Shown piece by piece: positions 832 to 10,466 of a stretch of DNA of 14,577 nt. Both the position numbers and the translations under genes were made by a program. The stretch lies in the UHGV virus genome UHGV-1333726; one strand, given 5' to 3'. Position 1 is the first letter of the stretch. Every line of letters starts with the position of its first letter. The DNA is from a virus. The notes under the pieces were generated by a model. That model did not search any database, was not told where the DNA came from, and saw only the letters and a list, made by a program, of their open reading frames with translations.

Positions 832-1032
832 TTACTTATTCCCCATTCGCGCGTCGTGTTCCTCTTGCGCTCGCTTGTTCTCCTGTGATTTGAAGTAATA
901 ATTAACGGCAAATGTGCCTACGGTTGATAAGATACCCACAAAGACGGCAATGTCATTGATGGTTATCGCGCCGAAAAAAGCAGTTACGGCCCCAGTCACA
1001 TACGCACACGCCTCCCGTATTCTGTCGAACAT
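832..1032 (-). CDS. class II holin, pinholin-like (phage 21 S-type)
   Basis: 66 aa; ATG 1032 with GGAGGA 6 nt upstream; two TM segments (first is Gly/Ala/Thr-rich), basic/acidic C-terminal tail ...[15 protein letters not shown]; sits directly before the SAR endolysin. Confidence 0.8.
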
Positions 1033-1052: not shown

Positions 1053-1074
1053 AAAAACCCGGCGCGGGGCCGGG
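1053..1074 (-). terminator. intrinsic terminator-like hairpin (candidate tR')
   Basis: On the minus strand CCCGGC-cccgc-GCCGGG (6-bp all-GC stem, 5-nt loop) followed by TTTTT, ending 8 nt before the holin Shine-Dalgarno. Confidence 0.55.
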
Positions 1075-1102
1075 TAGTTACAGTTTCGCATTGTTAGGTA
1101 AT

Positions 1103-1131
1103 ATTTTAATCTGTTTGTTTTCGACCCACAA
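1103..1131 (-). promoter_or_regulatory. candidate sigma70-type promoter (pR'-like) upstream of lysis genes
   Basis: Minus strand TTGTGG (1131-1126), 17-nt spacer, TAAAAT (1108-1103); weak -35, good -10 and spacing; lies in the only intergenic gap before the holin. Confidence 0.3.
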
Positions 1132-1139
1132 ATACGGCT

Positions 1140-1310
1140 TTACGCAGTTCTGTATATCAGTCCGTTATCAAGCAATGTTTGCATGTGTTCGCGATCCATA
1201 CCGCTTGATTCCCAATATTTATTGCCCGCGCTTTGTGTTAACACCCTATCACCTTTAACCAAGTAAGCGAAGTTAAATAACTTGTGCAAATAGATACCGT
1301 CTTCAATCAT
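1140..1310 (-). CDS. hypothetical protein (56 aa)
   Basis: ATG 1310 overlaps the TGA of the upstream gene (ATGA); translation MIEDGIYLHKLFNFAYLVKGDRVLTQSAGNKYWESSGMDREHMQTLLDNGLIYRTA; below the ORF-track size cutoff, found by manual translation. Confidence 0.45.
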   Translation of the reverse strand: MIEDGIYLHKLFNFAYLVKGDRVLTQSAGNKYWESSGMDREHMQTLLDNGLIYRTA

Positions 1311-1501
1311 TTCTTGCGCTCCTTAATGGCTCGCTTGATCTGCACTACCGTCGCATCAAAGAAAGCAAGAAAAACCAATACAGGCCAAAAAGGGATCTCA
1401 AATCCGCAACGGTCAGCCTCACTAACCTTAATAAAACATGACATCAAGATCGCGCCAGCGATATAAAGCAAAACAGTCACAGCAATAAGGCATTCAATCA
1501 T
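1307..1501 (-). CDS. small two-TM membrane protein (64 aa)
   Basis: ATG 1501 with GAGGA 6 nt upstream, 4 nt after stop of upstream gene; two hydrophobic segments (IAVTVLLYIAGAILM, FWPVLVFLAFF) and Lys-rich C-terminus; ORF-track start at 1543 overlaps the upstream gene by 50 nt and is less likely. Confidence 0.55.
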   Translation of the reverse strand: MIECLIAVTVLLYIAGAILMSCFIKVSEADRCGFEIPFWPVLVFLAFFDATVVQIKRAIKERKK

Positions 1502-1748
1502 AATCATCCTCATCGTCCTCATGTTCAGCCAGGAACTCATCAACCACTCTGTAAGTCACTGGCGGGATGTATTCGAAATCATCAGAATCAAGATCAAGCG
1601 TCCGGCTGTCGCCGTCATCGTCCAGCGTATTCATCCCTAATTCACCGAAAGGGCCGTACCCAATGTGGCCCAGGTATTCACATCCAATCGTAAAGCCAGG
1701 ATATTCGCCTTTGCACCTGATTTTGTATGGCTTATTTGATGCGCTCAA
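1494..1748 (-). CDS. hypothetical highly acidic protein
   Basis: Frame has no ATG near the upstream stop; TTG 1748 preceded by GGGGGAA is the best start (GTG 1769 alternative); C-terminal half is extremely acidic (DDDGDSRTLDLDSDDFEY...EHEDDEDDYD). Confidence 0.5.
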   Translation of the reverse strand: MSASNKPYKIRCKGEYPGFTIGCEYLGHIGYGPFGELGMNTLDDDGDSRTLDLDSDDFEYIPPVTYRVVDEFLAEHEDDEDDYD

Positions 1749-2055
1749 TTTTAATTCCCCCTGCCACACCTTCAGTCATTTTGTATTCAGCGATCAGTTC
1801 AGCACCAACCAATTCCACTTCATCACCAGGGAATGGATTAAGTTCCAATGATACTAAGATAAAAAATTTAACGTGATCTGCATTATCAAGATCTTTCACG
1901 TCAAAAGGAGGTTCAGCTACATGGAAGCACTTAACGCCATCCTCTTTGTCAGTGGCTACACGGAAACATGCGCCAGGCTGTCCGGCGAATTGTCCATTTT
2001 TTTCATCTTCTGGAAAAGTGCCACGGAAAACTTTAACGCTGATAAATTTAGACAT
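1732..2055 (-). CDS. hypothetical protein (107 aa)
   Basis: ATG 2055 with AAGGAGA upstream, 3 nt after the upstream stop. Confidence 0.6.
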   Translation of the reverse strand: MSKFISVKVFRGTFPEDEKNGQFAGQPGACFRVATDKEDGVKCFHVAEPPFDVKDLDNADHVKFFILVSLELNPFPGDEVELVGAELIAEYKMTEGVAGGIKIERIK

Positions 2056-4769: not shown

Positions 4770-5028
4770 CACTATGATCCTGTAAACAGTCGTTATAGCC
4801 TTCAATGTATCCGGTTAATCCAGTGTTACTAACTGACCAGTCAGCCGAACGGCGCTTGATGGCCTTGTCCATAGTCATTTCGTCGCCTGGTCCGCCTGGC
4901 TCAATGTATTTTCTTAAATCCCTTGCTATCCACGCCCTTAATTGTTGCGTATCACCGCACAACCGAGCGGATAATGTCAGGTCATTAACCAGCTTTGCAA
5001 ATAGATGTTCTTTTAATTTAGGCTTCAT
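4759..5028 (-). CDS. hypothetical protein (89 aa)
   Basis: ATG 5028 with GAGG upstream; ORF-track start 5061 is GTG. Confidence 0.5.
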   Translation of the reverse strand: MKPKLKEHLFAKLVNDLTLSARLCGDTQQLRAWIARDLRKYIEPGGPGDEMTMDKAIKRRSADWSVSNTGLTGYIEGYNDCLQDHSDGK

Positions 5029-5365
5029 TGTCGTCAACCTCGAAATACTGCTTAATAGCACGTTTGACGTTCATTTCACGCTGATAATTGTTATCGCTAT
5101 AGATTGCGGCTGCCGATACGTGATCGATAATTTGCTGTAATAAATCAGGATGAATTTTTATTTTTTCATCAAGGACAATGCGCGATGGCTTAGGTGCGGT
5201 AGCATTATCATTAACGATTTCTATCTCACCACGACCACCGCATCGCGGGCAAACAAACTTATCACCTTGATACAGCATGAATCCGCGACCTTTTTCAGTT
5301 TTTACGACCATGCCATCGTCGTCGCAGTTTTCGCAATACAGCCACCCAATATTAAGTATTTTCAT
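5018..5365 (-). CDS. zinc-ribbon protein (CxxC...CxxCGGRG), start uncertain
   Basis: ATG 5365 preferred (14-nt overlap with upstream gene; ATG 5428 would overlap by 77 nt); contains CENC...CPRCGGRGE pairs. Confidence 0.5.
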   Translation of the reverse strand: MKILNIGWLYCENCDDDGMVVKTEKGRGFMLYQGDKFVCPRCGGRGEIEIVNDNATAPKPSRIVLDEKIKIHPDLLQQIIDHVSAAAIYSDNNYQREMNVKRAIKQYFEVDDNEA

Positions 5366-5558
5366 TGTCTTTATTCCGTCCGTAAATATGTACTGGCTCA
5401 ACCGGTACGGCTGGCAATTCACCATCATTTAACGCGCTTGCCATGCCTAATATTAAACGCGCTTCAGCACCAGTGACTTTCTTACACCATGCACCGCCTG
5501 TTTTATCTTCGAACAAGATAACAGCAAACTGATCGTTTATTTCCAGCTTATCCATCAT
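5352..5558 (-). CDS. hypothetical protein (68 aa)
   Basis: ATG 5558 overlaps the TGA of Q (ATGA); second ATG at 5555. Confidence 0.5.
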   Translation of the reverse strand: MMDKLEINDQFAVILFEDKTGGAWCKKVTGAEARLILGMASALNDGELPAVPVEPVHIYGRNKDNENT

Positions 5559-6049
5559 TCACCCCGTGTTACTCGTTTGATTTCGTTGTCAGCCCGCGCC
5601 TCTTCTTTGAACAATTCAGCAATGGCGTCTTCATAGAAAGCGCGGTATTTCTTCCACCACGTTGATCGGCTTACCGGGAAAACAAGCTGATTAACCGCCC
5701 GCCGTACAAGATCTACAGGGAAACGCGAGTACCCGCGCCCGCCGCAATGCTGGCACGTTTTGAACACTGGCATTTCCGCCGCTTCACTGGCTGCTTTATC
5801 CGGTACTTCGCCACGGCCCTTGCATTGTTTACAATGATTGCGAACTGTCCCATGCCCCTTGCATTTTTTGCAAAGGTGTTTTTCTCCGTATTCGTCAAAC
5901 GTAAATTTATATCCGCCGCACTCCATACAAGTTTTTTCCGTCGCGGCACTCTGGCAATAATCCCGAAATGCGAAAACGGCAACAAGAATAATGAGATCAT
6001 TGCGTTTGGCCTCGTCCAGTTCCATAACGTATTCATAATCTTTTGCCAT
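5555..6049 (-). CDS. Q: late-gene antiterminator Q, zinc-finger (82/QuuD-like) type
   Basis: ATG 6049 with AAGGG upstream (ORF-track start 6073 is TTG); FAFRDYCQSAATEKTC, CQHCGGRGYSRFPVDLVRRAV and C-terminal ...STWWKKYRAFYEDAIAELFKEEARADNEI resemble recalled Q82/QuuD-family motifs; position downstream of ninG/rusA/ninH-like genes fits. Confidence 0.7.
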   Translation of the reverse strand: MAKDYEYVMELDEAKRNDLIILVAVFAFRDYCQSAATEKTCMECGGYKFTFDEYGEKHLCKKCKGHGTVRNHCKQCKGRGEVPDKAASEAAEMPVFKTCQHCGGRGYSRFPVDLVRRAVNQLVFPVSRSTWWKKYRAFYEDAIAELFKEEARADNEIKRVTRGE

Positions 6050-6083
6050 AGCCCTTAAACGCTCTGTAAGCAAAACTACGGCC

Positions 6084-6615: not shown

Positions 6616-6848
6616 TTCTCTACCACCTTAAACCGAGTTTTAAAATGACCCTGCAAAAAATACTCATTTTTTGATGGGAAATACTGGACTAATCGCCATG
6701 CGTCGGCGTCGTCGAAATCCGATACAAGATCGTCTTGTAGAATGAAAGCAAAGCACCCATGCTTTATAAAACCTGAATATTTTTTACCTTCAGTGAAAAA
6801 ATCGACGCTTGATTGAGTACATTTAACAACAATGTTTATTAACTCCAT
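6612..6848 (-). CDS. hypothetical protein (78 aa)
   Basis: ATG 6848 with GGGG upstream; 26-nt overlap with rusA end. Confidence 0.5.
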   Translation of the reverse strand: MELINIVVKCTQSSVDFFTEGKKYSGFIKHGCFAFILQDDLVSDFDDADAWRLVQYFPSKNEYFLQGHFKTRFKVVEK

Positions 6849-7251
6849 TGTCGCCCCACATATCAGTTAAGTATTCATTAATATCCGGCAACATGTCGTT
6901 GCGTTCTCGCACCTTGATAAATAAGAGTCCGCCTTTTACCTTCCGGCAACGAACAAACTTCATTGCGTCAACCTGGCTGTCATCGGCCCAAAAGCCGGAA
7001 TAGGTTATAGCGTCAAATAACGCTTTCCCTATATTATCTATATCGCGTCTCCTGTTGTCTGGCGGCGCAATATAAACCGTTATTGATAACCTGCATTTTA
7101 GATTTATATCAAGATTAAAACGCCTTATGACTTCCCTCACCCATTCTCTGTATTTTTTCCCCTCCTTGCTTATATAGTTAACCCCTCTGGCGTGGCGGTA
7201 ATACCTGTTACATGATGGCGGGTAAGGCAGGATAAAAGAATATTCATTCAT
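6823..7251 (-). CDS. rusA: Holliday-junction resolvase RusA
   Basis: ATG 7251 overlaps ninG TGA (ATGA); ILPYPPSCNRYYRH...PDNRRRDIDNIGKALFDAITYSGFWADDSQV matches the RusA family signature (PWPPSNNRYY...RRDLDN...FWLDD). Confidence 0.9.
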   Translation of the reverse strand: MNEYSFILPYPPSCNRYYRHARGVNYISKEGKKYREWVREVIRRFNLDINLKCRLSITVYIAPPDNRRRDIDNIGKALFDAITYSGFWADDSQVDAMKFVRCRKVKGGLLFIKVRERNDMLPDINEYLTDMWGDNGVNKHCC

Positions 7252-7853
7252 GCCGCCTTTCTCCTTAAGGCGTCTAATTTCGCCTGATAAACTTTAATGA
7301 TCTCCTTACATTCTTCGATCGTCCATTTGTGAGTTTCGTTATTATTTTCTAATGCCTCCACCCTTTCTAATCCTATTTTTTTTATTAAATTTATTCTGTA
7401 TAACTCAACATTGCCGTCTAATACCTGATTGCAATGTCGGCATTGTAGGTTTACGTTATCCTCGTTAAATCGAAGGTGTCCGGCTGCCGCTACTGTGCGC
7501 CAGTGTCCAGCATCAGCGCCGCATTGTTCGTAATAATAAGTCCCGCAAGATATACACGGCTGACCCGCGTCACGCTCGCGTATATAAGCGTTAAAAACGT
7601 TTTGTGCCTGTTTAATCCAGTAGCTACGCGGATTTAACTGTTTCCGTTTCCGGTTGCGTTCTTCCCGCTGGCTATCACGGCGTTTCTTCCGCTCCATAGC
7701 CTTCATAGCCTTTTCACGATCGCGGCATAGCTGATCAAACTTCAGTTCTTCCAGACATTCATCGCTGCACCACGTTTGATTGTGATATTTAGGCTCAAAA
7801 AAAACGCCGCAGCATTTGCAACGGCGTCTTATAGGTTTTTTAGGGTTCTGCAT
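7248..7853 (-). CDS. ninG: NinG/Rap recombination protein
   Basis: ATG 7853 (ORF-track start 7943 is an upstream extension); RRRCKCC...YHNQTWCS...PRSYWIKQAQNVFNAYIRERD...PCISCG...HKWTIEECK closely parallels lambda NinG. Confidence 0.85.
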   Translation of the reverse strand: MQNPKKPIRRRCKCCGVFFEPKYHNQTWCSDECLEELKFDQLCRDREKAMKAMERKKRRDSQREERNRKRKQLNPRSYWIKQAQNVFNAYIRERDAGQPCISCGTYYYEQCGADAGHWRTVAAAGHLRFNEDNVNLQCRHCNQVLDGNVELYRINLIKKIGLERVEALENNNETHKWTIEECKEIIKVYQAKLDALRRKAA

Positions 7854-7867
7854 AAAAACCACCCCGA

Positions 7868-8044
7868 TTATTTTTGATTCTCTGTTTCGTTCAGCCTTTC
7901 GGCGTGTCCGGCCCTTAGCCAATGTTCTAAGCATTCGTTGCACTCGTTACAGCCTCCTTTCTTCGTGCTGCATACATTGCACATTGCACGCATGACGCTT
8001 TCTCGTTCATAGTCGTCATGCCATTGGTAATTATCAAAAGTCAT
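7868..8044 (-). CDS. ninF: NinF-like small Cys-rich protein (58 aa)
   Basis: Manually found ORF ATG 8044 to TAA 7868; MTFDNYQWHDDYERESVMRAMCNVCSTKKGGCNECNEC...; position immediately upstream of ninG and Cys-rich character as in lambda NinF. Confidence 0.5.
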   Translation of the reverse strand: MTFDNYQWHDDYERESVMRAMCNVCSTKKGGCNECNECLEHWLRAGHAERLNETENQK

Positions 8045-8203: not shown

Positions 8204-8962
8204 TCAGTCCGGTAAAACGCGGTCATGGTTAGCCAGGAATACAGCACGGGCAAAGCCACGCGGTGTTAGTGAGCGGATCATCTTTGTTCGTTTCGTCCTG
8301 CCTCCGGTTTTCGCCCACCCAGGGTTATCACCAGAGTTAAGATCTACAGGTCTAAAAAGCGGCTGCCTGAATCCGTTGCCGCACCATATGCAAGTTTTCT
8401 TCGTGTACGCGTCGCGCGGTGGGTAAACATCAGGGAAAGCAGGATGCTTGTCATCTTCCGGCAGGTAGCCACCGTAAGCGCAAGGATTGAAGATAAAATC
8501 CGGTTTACGCCATAGCGTTGACAGCACACCAACAGGATTCTCCACCATCCACGGCACGTTATACATGTTAGCCAGAGATTCAACCAACATTGCGTTTCTT
8601 GCCGCCCTATTCTGAAAACAAGGATCTTTCCTGTATTTATCAACGAACCAGCGAGCGCCTGACACAGCGAGATCGTCGCATGGAGGAAAGCCCAGGATAA
8701 TGTCAGGCCCTGGATAAACAGACAATTCAGGGGAGAACATTCCCAGGAAATGGCTATCAATCCAGATGTTAACGTATTCAATATTTGGATGAATGATTTT
8801 AACGCCTTCATAATCTCCGTGATTTGCGCCGTCATAGTTGAAGCAATAGCACTTATATCCAGCTTCCGCCCAATCTTTAACGGCGTACCCGCTGCCGTCG
8901 TACAGCGACCACACCACCCAACTTCTAAGCCAATTATTTAACCAATGTTTAGCCCTGCTCAT
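8204..8962 (-). CDS. compact C5-methyltransferase-fold protein (putative DNA cytosine-5 methyltransferase-like enzyme)
   Basis: ATG 8962 overlaps TGA of upstream gene (ATGA); motif I-like LYDGSGY (res 21-27), GFPPCDDLAVSGAR (res 91-104, cf. M.HhaI GFPCQAFSISGK) and VENP (res 140-143, ENV-like) in canonical order and spacing; only 252 aa, no obvious QRR or target-recognition domain. Confidence 0.6.
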   Translation of the reverse strand: MSRAKHWLNNWLRSWVVWSLYDGSGYAVKDWAEAGYKCYCFNYDGANHGDYEGVKIIHPNIEYVNIWIDSHFLGMFSPELSVYPGPDIILGFPPCDDLAVSGARWFVDKYRKDPCFQNRAARNAMLVESLANMYNVPWMVENPVGVLSTLWRKPDFIFNPCAYGGYLPEDDKHPAFPDVYPPRDAYTKKTCIWCGNGFRQPLFRPVDLNSGDNPGWAKTGGRTKRTKMIRSLTPRGFARAVFLANHDRVLPD

Positions 8963-9462: not shown

Positions 9463-9934
9463 TTTTATGATCCTTCGGTGTATACAATAAAGCCTCTTTA
9501 TTAAACCGCCAGCCGTTACCAAGCTGGAAGCTACCATTCATTATTACTTCACCACTAGCGATTAGGTCGCCTGGTATTGAGGTTTTCTTACAGCGGCAAT
9601 TTAACGACATATCAAAATCACCCTGTTTTTTCTTTTGCTCTTCCTCCCGCTCCGCTAATATTTGCTCCGCTTTTAGCGCGTTGTAAGCAATAAGGTCTAT
9701 GAGAGTGTCGAGCGGATCGCTTCCATTGCTTAAAATGGCCTCTAATCGCGCCTCCTTGAGGCAAATCATTAGATCCCATACATCAAGCGGGGTTAAACTT
9801 GTCCCCTTCTTAGCGTTGTAAATAGTGGCTATTTTTGGCGCTGATTTTTCTTCTTTTCGATCGTATCCGTTTTGTTCTCCTCTTGCCTCGATAGTTTCAG
9901 CCGCAAGTCTCAGCAATTCAGCCGCTTTATTCAT
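9443..9934 (-). CDS. hypothetical protein (163 aa), helical N-terminal domain
   Basis: ATG 9934 with GAGGTG upstream, 2 nt after dam stop (ORF-track start 9952 overlaps dam); conserved-looking LTPLDVWDLMICLKEARL segment; no family assigned. Confidence 0.55.
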   Translation of the reverse strand: MNKAAELLRLAAETIEARGEQNGYDRKEEKSAPKIATIYNAKKGTSLTPLDVWDLMICLKEARLEAILSNGSDPLDTLIDLIAYNALKAEQILAEREEEQKKKQGDFDMSLNCRCKKTSIPGDLIASGEVIMNGSFQLGNGWRFNKEALLYTPKDHKNGKGDD

Positions 9935-10466
9935 TTTCTGCACCTCTTGCATATAGCTCTTTACGTGTTATCTGCGTGAAAATACATTCATGTCTGCATC
10001 GTGGATGCCAGATCAAGAACAAGCTCCCTTTATTGTTTCCACTTGCTGGTTTACCTGTTGCAGCATTGATAAACGCCAGCCGCCCGCGCGTGATTAATCG
10101 GCATTCGTTTGCAGTCTCCACGCCGTTCATAAACCAGCTAACAGAAATGTCAGCGGGCAACAACATCACGCAACCGATGTGATTCCGTTGATGTTCGAGC
10201 GCCGCTTTATCAATAAATGGACCCGGATTTGAGTATGGCGGATTCATCCATACATATTCGCCAGGCATTGCCACCGCTCCCCACGGATAAGTAAGCGTGT
10301 CCATTTCTTCGGTTATATATCGCGGGATTAATGCGTTTGCCTTGTTTGCCGCCACGTCAGCGACAAATTCAAACTCGCGGTCCATTCCTCTAAAAACTGG
10401 TTTAGGTGTCTGCCACAGGTCTTTAATTTCCTTCGGTGTGCTGCTGCCTCCAAAATCATTTTTCAT
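9927..10466 (-). CDS. dam: phage Dam-family DNA N6-adenine methyltransferase
   Basis: ATG 10466 with AAGGGGGG upstream; N-terminal DLWQTPKPVF...FEFVADVAA and catalytic VWMNPPYS (NPPY variant of DPPY) are signatures of the phage Dam family. Confidence 0.85.
   Translation of the reverse strand: MKNDFGGSSTPKEIKDLWQTPKPVFRGMDREFEFVADVAANKANALIPRYITEEMDTLTYPWGAVAMPGEYVWMNPPYSNPGPFIDKAALEHQRNHIGCVMLLPADISVSWFMNGVETANECRLITRGRLAFINAATGKPASGNNKGSLFLIWHPRCRHECIFTQITRKELYARGAENE

Follow-up and report, generated by a model that had tools for sequence, protein, structure and literature searches.

The window analyzed here, a 14,577-nt stretch of phage DNA, carries a gene (1494..1748, minus strand) for a protein of 84 amino acids that is well supported as cytoplasmic, strongly acidic and translated from a TTG codon. 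Comparison with related loci indicates that this acidic gene is real, conserved and under purifying selection. The protein is predicted to form an acidic SH3-like beta-barrel followed by a helix and a polyacidic tail, an architecture that differs, according to the model, from that of the classical DNA mimics. We tentatively suggest that it may be an inhibitor that covers a basic, nucleic-acid-binding surface of another protein. The firm gains of the analysis are a corrected gene model, an acidic region that is predicted to be mostly folded, a three-gene cassette to which the gene belongs, and the exclusion of membership in the Ocr and ArdA families.

Phage context and predicted timing of expression

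The 14.6-kb window shares 86–89% nucleotide identity with Escherichia phages mEp554, mEp010, mEp044, mEp013, mEp515, mEp021 and MagusPhagus, which are Nus-dependent, non-lambdoid "mEpimmI" temperate coliphages (PMC11893012). At this level of identity, the window is assigned to a temperate coliphage of the mEp021 (mEpimmI) group. All of its genes are on the minus strand. Pfam matches identify genes for a Dam methyltransferase (9927-10466, minus strand), NinG (7248-7943, minus strand), RusA (6823-7251, minus strand), a Q-type antiterminator (5555-6073, minus strand) and a phage lysozyme (339-911, minus strand); also present is a holin gene (832-1032, minus strand). Rfam and tRNA scans across the window were empty.

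The interval from Q to the holin gene is occupied by about 17 small open reading frames (ORFs). The acidic gene is one of these; the Dam, NinG, RusA and Q genes all lie upstream of it, and two genes separate it from the holin gene. The conserved gene order is 129-aa, 85-aa and 107-aa ORFs, the acidic gene, a 64-aa membrane protein gene, an extra ORF in some loci, a 56-aa ORF, holin and lysozyme.

Just upstream of the holin gene is a block (1057..1131, minus strand) in which a promoter-like sequence, TTGTGG-17-TAAAAT (1131-1103), precedes a strong intrinsic terminator (1075-1057). Across 20 related loci the TAAAAT-to-terminator stretch hardly varies, and this holds also for loci whose sequence on the -35 side is different. 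The late promoter pR' of lambda is accompanied by qut and by the tR' terminator. By analogy with that arrangement, the block at 1131-1057 may be a Q-dependent late promoter with a tR'-like terminator. A scan for a promoter belonging to the acidic gene itself returned no convincing candidate. The gene would then be transcribed as the distal part of an N-antiterminated early rightward transcript, upstream of the late promoter. On either reading, its position would place it far from the early promoter.

Gene model and start codon

Translation of the minus strand from a TTG codon at 1748-1746 to a TGA stop codon at 1496-1494 gives LSASNKPYKIRCKGEYPGFTIGCEYLGHIGYGPFGELGMNTLDDDGDSRTLDLDSDDFEYIPPVTYRVVDEFLAEHEDDEDDYD, followed by the stop. 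A Shine-Dalgarno sequence, AGGGGG (1757..1762, minus strand), lies 8 nt 5' of the TTG and within the 3' end of the upstream gene. The first-pass annotation, made from the sequence alone, had proposed a non-ATG start with a good Shine-Dalgarno sequence, and this is borne out by the related loci: 20 of 22 keep both the TTG and a box of the form GGAGG or GGGGGA. The exceptions are L004, which has a different N-terminus and an ATG start, and L022, which carries a 1-nt insertion.

A mechanical list of ORFs places the start at GTG 1769, giving a 91-aa product. The only profile family matched by the protein, phrog_25234 (function not annotated), aligns over its full length (1-83 of 83) with residues 8-90 of this 91-aa ORF (E 9.4e-57), so that the alignment starts precisely on the TTG codon at 1748. 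Database homologs likewise start at the TTG position. The sequence evidence thus favors TTG 1748 over GTG 1769 as the start of the gene.

Public annotations give shorter products. PGAP/RefSeq calls only a 46-aa form that begins at the internal Met39, and RAST/phanotate calls a 59-aa form in mEp554. These calls, together with a weak GGTGA box 7 nt 5' of the internal ATG (noted by eye), would fit either a chance ORF or a gene whose sole product is the 46-aa form. We regard both versions as highly improbable. For 19 distinct alleles drawn from the window and 20 related loci, the Nei-Gojobori method gives a dN/dS of 0.13 (dS 0.38, dN 0.049), and the value for the N-terminal half (0.127) is close to that for the C-terminal half (0.134). 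As purifying selection on the two halves is the same, the half omitted by RefSeq is coding. Further, the N-terminal half is required for the confidently predicted barrel described below and is homologous to short proteins of Tlsvirus phages, and the conserved TTG and Shine-Dalgarno sequence are those of the long form. We conclude that the correct gene model is the 84-aa protein from TTG and that the 46-aa and 59-aa versions are truncations.

Constraint is not uniform along the gene. The barrel is the most constrained region (dN/dS 0.10), and codons 62-76, the helix region, have a value of 0.29. The amino acid identity of the acidic protein is 89–98% in 21 of the 22 related loci, compared with 47–98% for the products of flanking genes; in L004, the locus with the variant N-terminus, identity is 60%.

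Composition and charge

The protein contains 22 Asp/Glu (26% of residues) and six Lys/Arg in 84 residues, for a net charge of about -16 at pH 7 and a calculated pI of at most 4.05, the lowest value that the routine can return. The acidic residues are concentrated in the C-terminal half, as the first-pass annotation had stated, and the strings that it quoted are found exactly: the last 42 residues (43-84) include 19 Asp/Glu and only two Lys/Arg. When every stop-to-stop ORF of 60 aa or more in the window (92 in all) is scanned, the next most acidic 42-residue stretch has 12 Asp/Glu. Shuffling the window 200 times gave a best 42-residue value of 8.3 on average (standard deviation 1.2) and of 14 at most. 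Given how far the observed value exceeds those of both the shuffled sequences and the other ORFs, the acidity is not a chance feature.

The same property extends to the homologs. Of 30 aligned long forms, 29 have a net charge between -11 and -20, and the remaining one, a 50-aa entry, has a net charge of -8. Four of five short homologs have net charges of -7 to -11, and the fifth (P0055) is mildly acidic (-3.4). On this alignment, acidity is a well-supported, conserved property of the family. Within the polyacidic tail the composition is retained but the order of residues varies (EDDEDDYD, EDEDDDD, EDDEEDD and EDEGDDD). The first-pass annotation would have been undermined had the acidic part proved to be disordered filler conserved in no homolog. 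This is not the case, as the acidity is kept in nearly all of them.

Predicted structure

An AlphaFold2 model built on a shallow alignment (30 sequences, mostly close relatives) has a mean pLDDT of 86 and a pTM of 0.71. Strands are predicted at residues 7-12, 24-31, 37-42, 48-51 and 58-61, and a helix at 66-76. The five strands are antiparallel in the predicted model and have SH3 topology, so that codons 7-61 (1566..1730, minus strand) are predicted to form a five-stranded SH3-like beta-barrel that holds both acidic runs. The first of these, DDDGD (codons 43-47; 1608..1622, minus strand), forms an acidic turn between strands 3 and 4 (37-42 and 48-51), and the second, DLDSDD (codons 52-57; 1578..1595, minus strand), is an acidic link from strand 4 to strand 5 (48-51 and 58-61). 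The barrel is followed by the predicted helix YRVVDEFLAEH (codons 66-76; 1521..1553, minus strand), the hydrophobic side of which (V68, V69, F72 and L73) could pack on the barrel. The polyacidic tail, EDDEDDYD (codons 77-84; 1497..1520, minus strand), has a mean pLDDT of 54 for this last block, and its eight residues are probably disordered.

Structure prediction had been proposed as a check on the acidic half. The outcome is that only the last eight residues are likely to be disordered and the rest, the SH3-like barrel and helix, is predicted to be folded. Because DDDGD and DLDSDD lie within the barrel and VDEFLAEH lies in the helix, what had been described as an acidic half is, in the model, mostly folded and is not a tail. 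Acidic residues at these SH3-type turns may be partly structural. When long and short homologs are aligned, D43 and F58 are invariant, and D57 and G46 are nearly so.

A Foldseek search of the PDB gave no match below an E-value of 0.2. The best structural match in BFVD is the protein of phage LL5, which is one of the short homologs. Being generic, the SH3-like fold offers few clues to function.

Two motif-level candidates were considered and dropped. A DxDxDG calcium-binding loop, noted by eye, was set aside as its first position is T, I or V rather than D. The segment DDFEYIPP was considered as a possible mimic of the C-terminal DDDIPF tip of SSB or of the C-terminal peptide of FtsZ. It was dropped since the segment is internal and, in the model, constitutes strand 5 of the barrel rather than a free tail.

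Homologs and distribution

A search of 5.8 billion proteins identified homologs in 52 clusters at 90% identity, all of which are annotated as "hypothetical protein", as is every named homolog. A search of 1.8 billion proteins recovered 13 representatives at 50% identity. Profile searching increases this narrow family to 77 clusters and adds no named relative. Pfam-A contains no family that matches the acidic protein at E<=1, NCBIfam gave no match, and no PADLOC defense model matched the protein or nine neighboring small ORFs at E<=0.1. Neither the family profile nor a short homolog, used as queries against PDB sequences, gave a match at E<=10.

The gene occurs in 29 of 5,426 complete E. coli genomes, in all cases as a single chromosomal copy; no plasmid-borne copy was found among these genomes. 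All of the related loci that we found are phages or prophages. Only four of 50,697 phage records matched the acidic protein by tblastn, and all four are mEpimmI-type phages.

Short homologs (52-58 aa), which are more distant members of the family, are encoded by T1-like Tlsvirus phages and by Hicfunavirus phages, and include gp73 of Bas08 (DanielBernoulli), gp10 of LL5 and gp11 of HCF1. These align over the barrel at 39–47% identity, with the same acidic turns. Shared by the short and long forms are a CxGEYxGFTxGxxY segment, the DDDGDxR turn and a (D/E)(D/E)F motif. The short proteins consist of the barrel only: they end soon after strand 5 and have no PPVTY segment, helix or polyacidic tail. 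Their setting also differs, as their genes adjoin a polynucleotide kinase gene in virulent phages. Based on these alignments, both phrog_25234 and the short Tlsvirus/Hicfunavirus proteins are true homologs of the acidic protein.

Among the long forms, several (P0048-P0051 and P0054) have a divergent N-terminal half and a nearly unchanged set of 40 C-terminal residues. One natural chimera (P0045), found on seven contigs, has the N-terminal 35 residues of the upstream gene product fused to the acidic protein at ATD|DDGD, and so retains only the acidic C-terminal part after a foreign N-terminus. This chimera raised the possibility that the upstream 107-aa gene is a paralog, which was rejected as neither BLASTP nor hhalign detected similarity. 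Further chimeras and deletions (P0043, P0044, P0046 and P0047) show that, in some prophages, the locus is also decaying.

A three-gene accessory cassette

The acidic gene is flanked by two co-inherited genes. Upstream is the gene for a 107-aa protein (phrog_23107; 1732..2055, minus strand), found in 21 of the 22 related loci, whose stop is overlapped by the start of the acidic gene by 17 nt. Downstream is the gene for the 64-aa protein (phrog_10061; 1307..1501, minus strand), found in 22 of 22, whose ATG overlaps the stop of the acidic gene by 8 nt (ATGATTGA). All three genes occur in the identical four records among the 50,697 phage records. Phage mEp021 lacks all three, and its 85-aa ORF abuts its 56-aa ORF. 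From this comparison, the 107-aa, acidic and 64-aa genes form an accessory cassette, acquired or lost as one piece, within a hypervariable region. The absence from mEp021 shows that the acidic gene is dispensable and accessory. No link was found between the acidic gene and the methyltransferases of the phage itself: mEp021 has annotations for both Dam and a cytosine methyltransferase and does not have the acidic gene.

From a reading of the sequence by eye, the 64-aa protein has a basic end, RAIKERKK, in addition to two hydrophobic segments. The perfect linkage of its gene to the acidic gene hints at a different, membrane-associated role for the acidic protein. The two could constitute a module that acts at the inner membrane, in which the acidic protein is translationally coupled to the membrane protein and docks, for instance, on its basic cytoplasmic end. 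Possible roles of such a pair are superinfection exclusion, modulation of the timing of lysis, or neutralization of a small membrane-active toxin. Beyond the co-occurrence and the 8-nt start/stop overlap, this idea draws on the retention of RAIKERKK in both sequence variants of the 64-aa protein, on the location of the cassette directly upstream of the lysis genes, and on the short homologs, which in Bas08 and LL5 are followed by a 33-aa hydrophobic ORF with a 4-nt overlap and in HCF1 by a 43-aa ORF with a hydrophobic end. However, six loci have approximately 120-160 nt between the acidic and 64-aa genes, so coupling is not universal, and the membrane ORFs of the Tlsvirus and mEpimmI phages show no evident similarity to each other. 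Hydrophobic ORFs of this small size are frequent in the early regions of phages, and the linkage may simply reflect insertion or deletion of a single block. Overall, we consider a membrane module to be unlikely.

Proposed function

Small, very acidic phage proteins are often inhibitors of host nucleic-acid enzymes or of defense systems, and include Ocr, Arn, T7 gp5.9, SPO1 Gp46, several anti-CRISPRs and TifA. Small acidic accessory proteins of phages are already familiar as a general kind. The reading that we prefer, while judging it to be possible rather than probable, is that the acidic protein covers the nucleic-acid-binding surface of a target. It would do so as a stoichiometric, protein-binding inhibitor, with its electronegative surface occupying a basic surface of a host or defense protein. 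Candidate classes of target include nucleases, restriction enzymes and nucleoid-associated proteins. This would be nucleic-acid mimicry in a loose sense, as described for CarS and TifA (see below), and not the rigid B-DNA mimicry of Ocr or ArdA.

Support for an inhibitor comes from the conserved acidity, the predicted fold, the precedents of CarS and TifA, a size and Asp/Glu count in the range used to screen for DNA mimics, the accessory and hypervariable nature of the locus, and the chimera (P0045) that keeps the acidic part. Weighing against it is the timing of expression, inferred to be late relative to DNA entry from the position of the gene far from the early promoter, along with the generic nature of the fold, the possible structural role of the acidic turns and the linkage to the 64-aa membrane protein gene.

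An alternative is that the protein is an SH3-like adaptor that binds peptides or proteins, with specificity provided by a conserved aromatic loop, C-x-G-E-Y-x-G-F-T-x-G-x-x-Y, which connects strands 1 and 2. In that case the acidic turns would be structural and the tail would serve solubility or spacing, making the acidity incidental and involving no nucleic-acid mimicry. The conservation of this loop between the long mEpimmI and short Tlsvirus forms is consistent with such a role, as are the low pLDDT of the last eight residues, for which only composition is conserved, and the weak charge of P0055 (-3.4). Also consistent is the precedent of Gp54 of phage Bas11, a small beta-barrel accessory protein that works by specific protein contact (PMC11578894). 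In contrast, the N-terminal loop is lost or divergent in P0048-P0051, P0054 and P0045 while the acidic C-terminal part is almost unchanged, and net charge is strongly negative in nearly all members of the family. We consider an adaptor role, too, to be unlikely.

If the inhibitor role is correct, an SH3-like scaffold would be added to the acidic phage inhibitors, for coliphages. It would also provide a function for one member of the large unannotated block of genes between Q and lysis in a prevalent group of gut phages.

Comparison with known systems

Ocr (T7 gp0.3) is an all-helical dimer that mimics bent B-DNA and is the first gene product expressed on DNA entry. ArdA is an elongated, three-domain dimer of about 166 aa encoded in the leading regions of conjugative plasmids or on transposons. 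The first-pass annotation had likened the acidic protein to both, and in composition the resemblance stands, as the protein is small, has very high Asp/Glu content (26%) and has a low pI (at most 4.05). In other respects the likeness fails. The protein has no match to the Pfam models of Ocr or ArdA at E<=1. Unlike Ocr, it is predicted to be an SH3-like barrel rather than all-helical, and its gene, which is beyond Q and third from last before the lysis cassette, does not have the position of an immediate-early gene. Unlike ArdA, it has 84 aa and a single predicted SH3-like domain, and all 29 E. coli copies are chromosomal, with no plasmid copy in the 5,426 genomes. Thus, sequence, predicted fold and genomic setting lead us to reject membership in either family. 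The idea that the protein is a B-DNA mimic of this type that blocks type I restriction-modification when phage DNA enters the cell is accordingly very unlikely: a gene beyond Q, in the distal early region, is poorly suited to protection at DNA entry, and the window itself encodes a Dam methyltransferase.

The DNA mimics in general are a functional class and not a homologous family. A screen for such proteins considered those of less than 200 aa with at least 10 Asp/Glu on a surface in which negatively charged residues make up 10% or more (PMC3902945). With 84 aa and 22 Asp/Glu, the latter counted over the whole sequence, the acidic protein fits these loose limits in size and in number of acidic residues. 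A curated database lists 11 DNA mimics among 268 anti-defense proteins (bioRxiv 10.1101/2025.06.06.658234).

Gp54 of Escherichia phage Bas11 (PDB 9AXB), which triggers the CapRel-SJ46 defense via a specific protein contact (PMC11578894), was also compared. It has no sequence similarity to the acidic protein and forms a six-stranded barrel, whereas the acidic protein is predicted to be five-stranded. The structural score against Gp54 is no better than that against generic SH3 domains.

Enterococcus phage phi47 encodes TifA (Orf65), a protein that binds type IV restriction enzymes and inhibits them (PMC11322646). It has an SH3-like N-terminal domain, 21.3% acidic residues and an electronegative surface. 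The nucleases have an electropositive DNA-binding region, and this is the proposed site of TifA binding; the authors of that work stop short of describing TifA as a strict DNA mimic and themselves point out that an SH3-like fold reveals little about function (PMC11322646). The acidic protein is similar in being a phage accessory protein with a (predicted) SH3-like domain and unusually high acidity (26% compared with 21.3%). The two differ in that TifA has a second domain, comes from other hosts and phage lineages, and is an established inhibitor. No sequence similarity to TifA was detected by tblastn against the 50,697 phage records, in which the matches were limited to the four mEpimmI-type phages.

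The CarS antirepressor of Myxococcus xanthus is a five-stranded SH3-like protein with a pI of 4.1 that mimics operator DNA and sequesters the recognition helix of a repressor (PMC2926617). The acidic protein shares with CarS its acidity and, in the predicted model, its five-stranded SH3-like fold. CarS thus establishes that an SH3-like scaffold can act as a nucleic-acid mimic.

Taken further, the acidic protein and its short Tlsvirus relatives could represent a new family of SH3-like nucleic-acid-mimicking inhibitors, common to temperate mEpimmI and virulent T1-like coliphages, that neutralize a DNA-binding host defense or nucleoid protein, possibly together with the coupled micro-membrane protein. 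We offer this fuller proposal, in which the family would be convergent with CarS and TifA, as speculation that is more likely wrong than right by a wide measure. CarS and TifA are the closest functional analogs of the acidic protein, and are convergent with it rather than homologous.

Gene content and integrity of the cassette

The 107-aa gene, the gene for the acidic protein and the 64-aa membrane-protein gene (window 1307-2055, minus strand) are gained or lost jointly. These cassette genes were found in the identical 4 of 50,697 phage records, and within the related loci the membrane gene occurs in 22 of 22 and the 107-aa gene in 21 of 22. Phage mEp021 is without all three, and the flanking ORFs abut there (L024 1641-1994).

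Public gene models truncate the acidic gene (window 1494-1748, minus strand, TTG start). The PGAP model for E. coli strain 127 in RefSeq (L025 1315-1455) uses an internal ATG start and reduces the product to 46 aa, and the RAST/phanotate model in the mEp554 record (L001 3079-3258) reduces it to 59 aa. The omitted N-terminal 38 codons are under purifying selection and belong to the predicted fold of the protein.

Five proteins (P0043, P0044, P0045, P0046 and P0047) are natural chimeras or deletions with breakpoints within the acidic gene; some may be assembly artefacts. P0045, in which the N-terminus of the upstream gene is fused to the acidic C-terminal part, was identified on 7 contigs. The N-terminus of P0043 derives from the 85-aa ORF located upstream of the 107-aa gene, and the C-terminal ends of P0047 and P0044 derive from the 56-aa ORF that precedes the holin gene and from the Q antiterminator gene, respectively. 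In an IMG/VR prophage (L022, ~5001-5020), a 1-nt insertion is present right behind the TTG start (TCAAAATAA versus the usual TCAAATAA). Because this would end the reading frame after five codons, the acidic gene may be inactivated in this prophage.

Transcription signals and other ORFs

A promoter-like sequence (TTGTGG-17-TAAAAT) and, behind it, a strong terminator, ACCCGGCCCCGCGCCGGGT plus TTTTT, lie in the 107-nt gap that precedes the holin gene (window 1057-1131, minus strand). Across 20 related loci the block from TAAAAT through CTAACAATGCGAAA to the terminator is nearly invariant, and the -35 side occurs in two versions. The block looks like the late promoter that depends on Q, combined with a terminator similar to tR'.

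Q itself (window 5555-6073, minus strand) matches the DnaJ-type CXXCXGXG zinc-finger model at 27.6 bits, under the Pfam cut-off of 32.7 bits. A 136-aa ORF two genes downstream (window 5018-5428, minus strand) also matches this model below the cut-off (20.1 bits), and the two matches therefore suggest a second small zinc-finger protein just after Q. For the 252-aa ORF (window 8204-8962, minus strand), Pfam gives no match at E<=0.01. Its possible counterpart in mEp021, the equally long mEp021_33, is annotated as a "putative DNA cytosine methyltransferase"; this label may claim too much, or the enzyme may be divergent.

Comparison with T1-like phages

In T1-like phages, the acidic protein has a short homologue whose gene is directly followed by a tiny hydrophobic ORF. 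This ORF encodes 33 aa (MIENYDPMALAWG...) and overlaps the homologue by 4 nt in both Bas08 (gp74, L003 3674-3775) and LL5 (L026 874-975, unannotated); the corresponding ORF in HCF1 encodes 43 aa (L027 883-1014). This gene order echoes the pairing of acidic and membrane-protein genes in the window.
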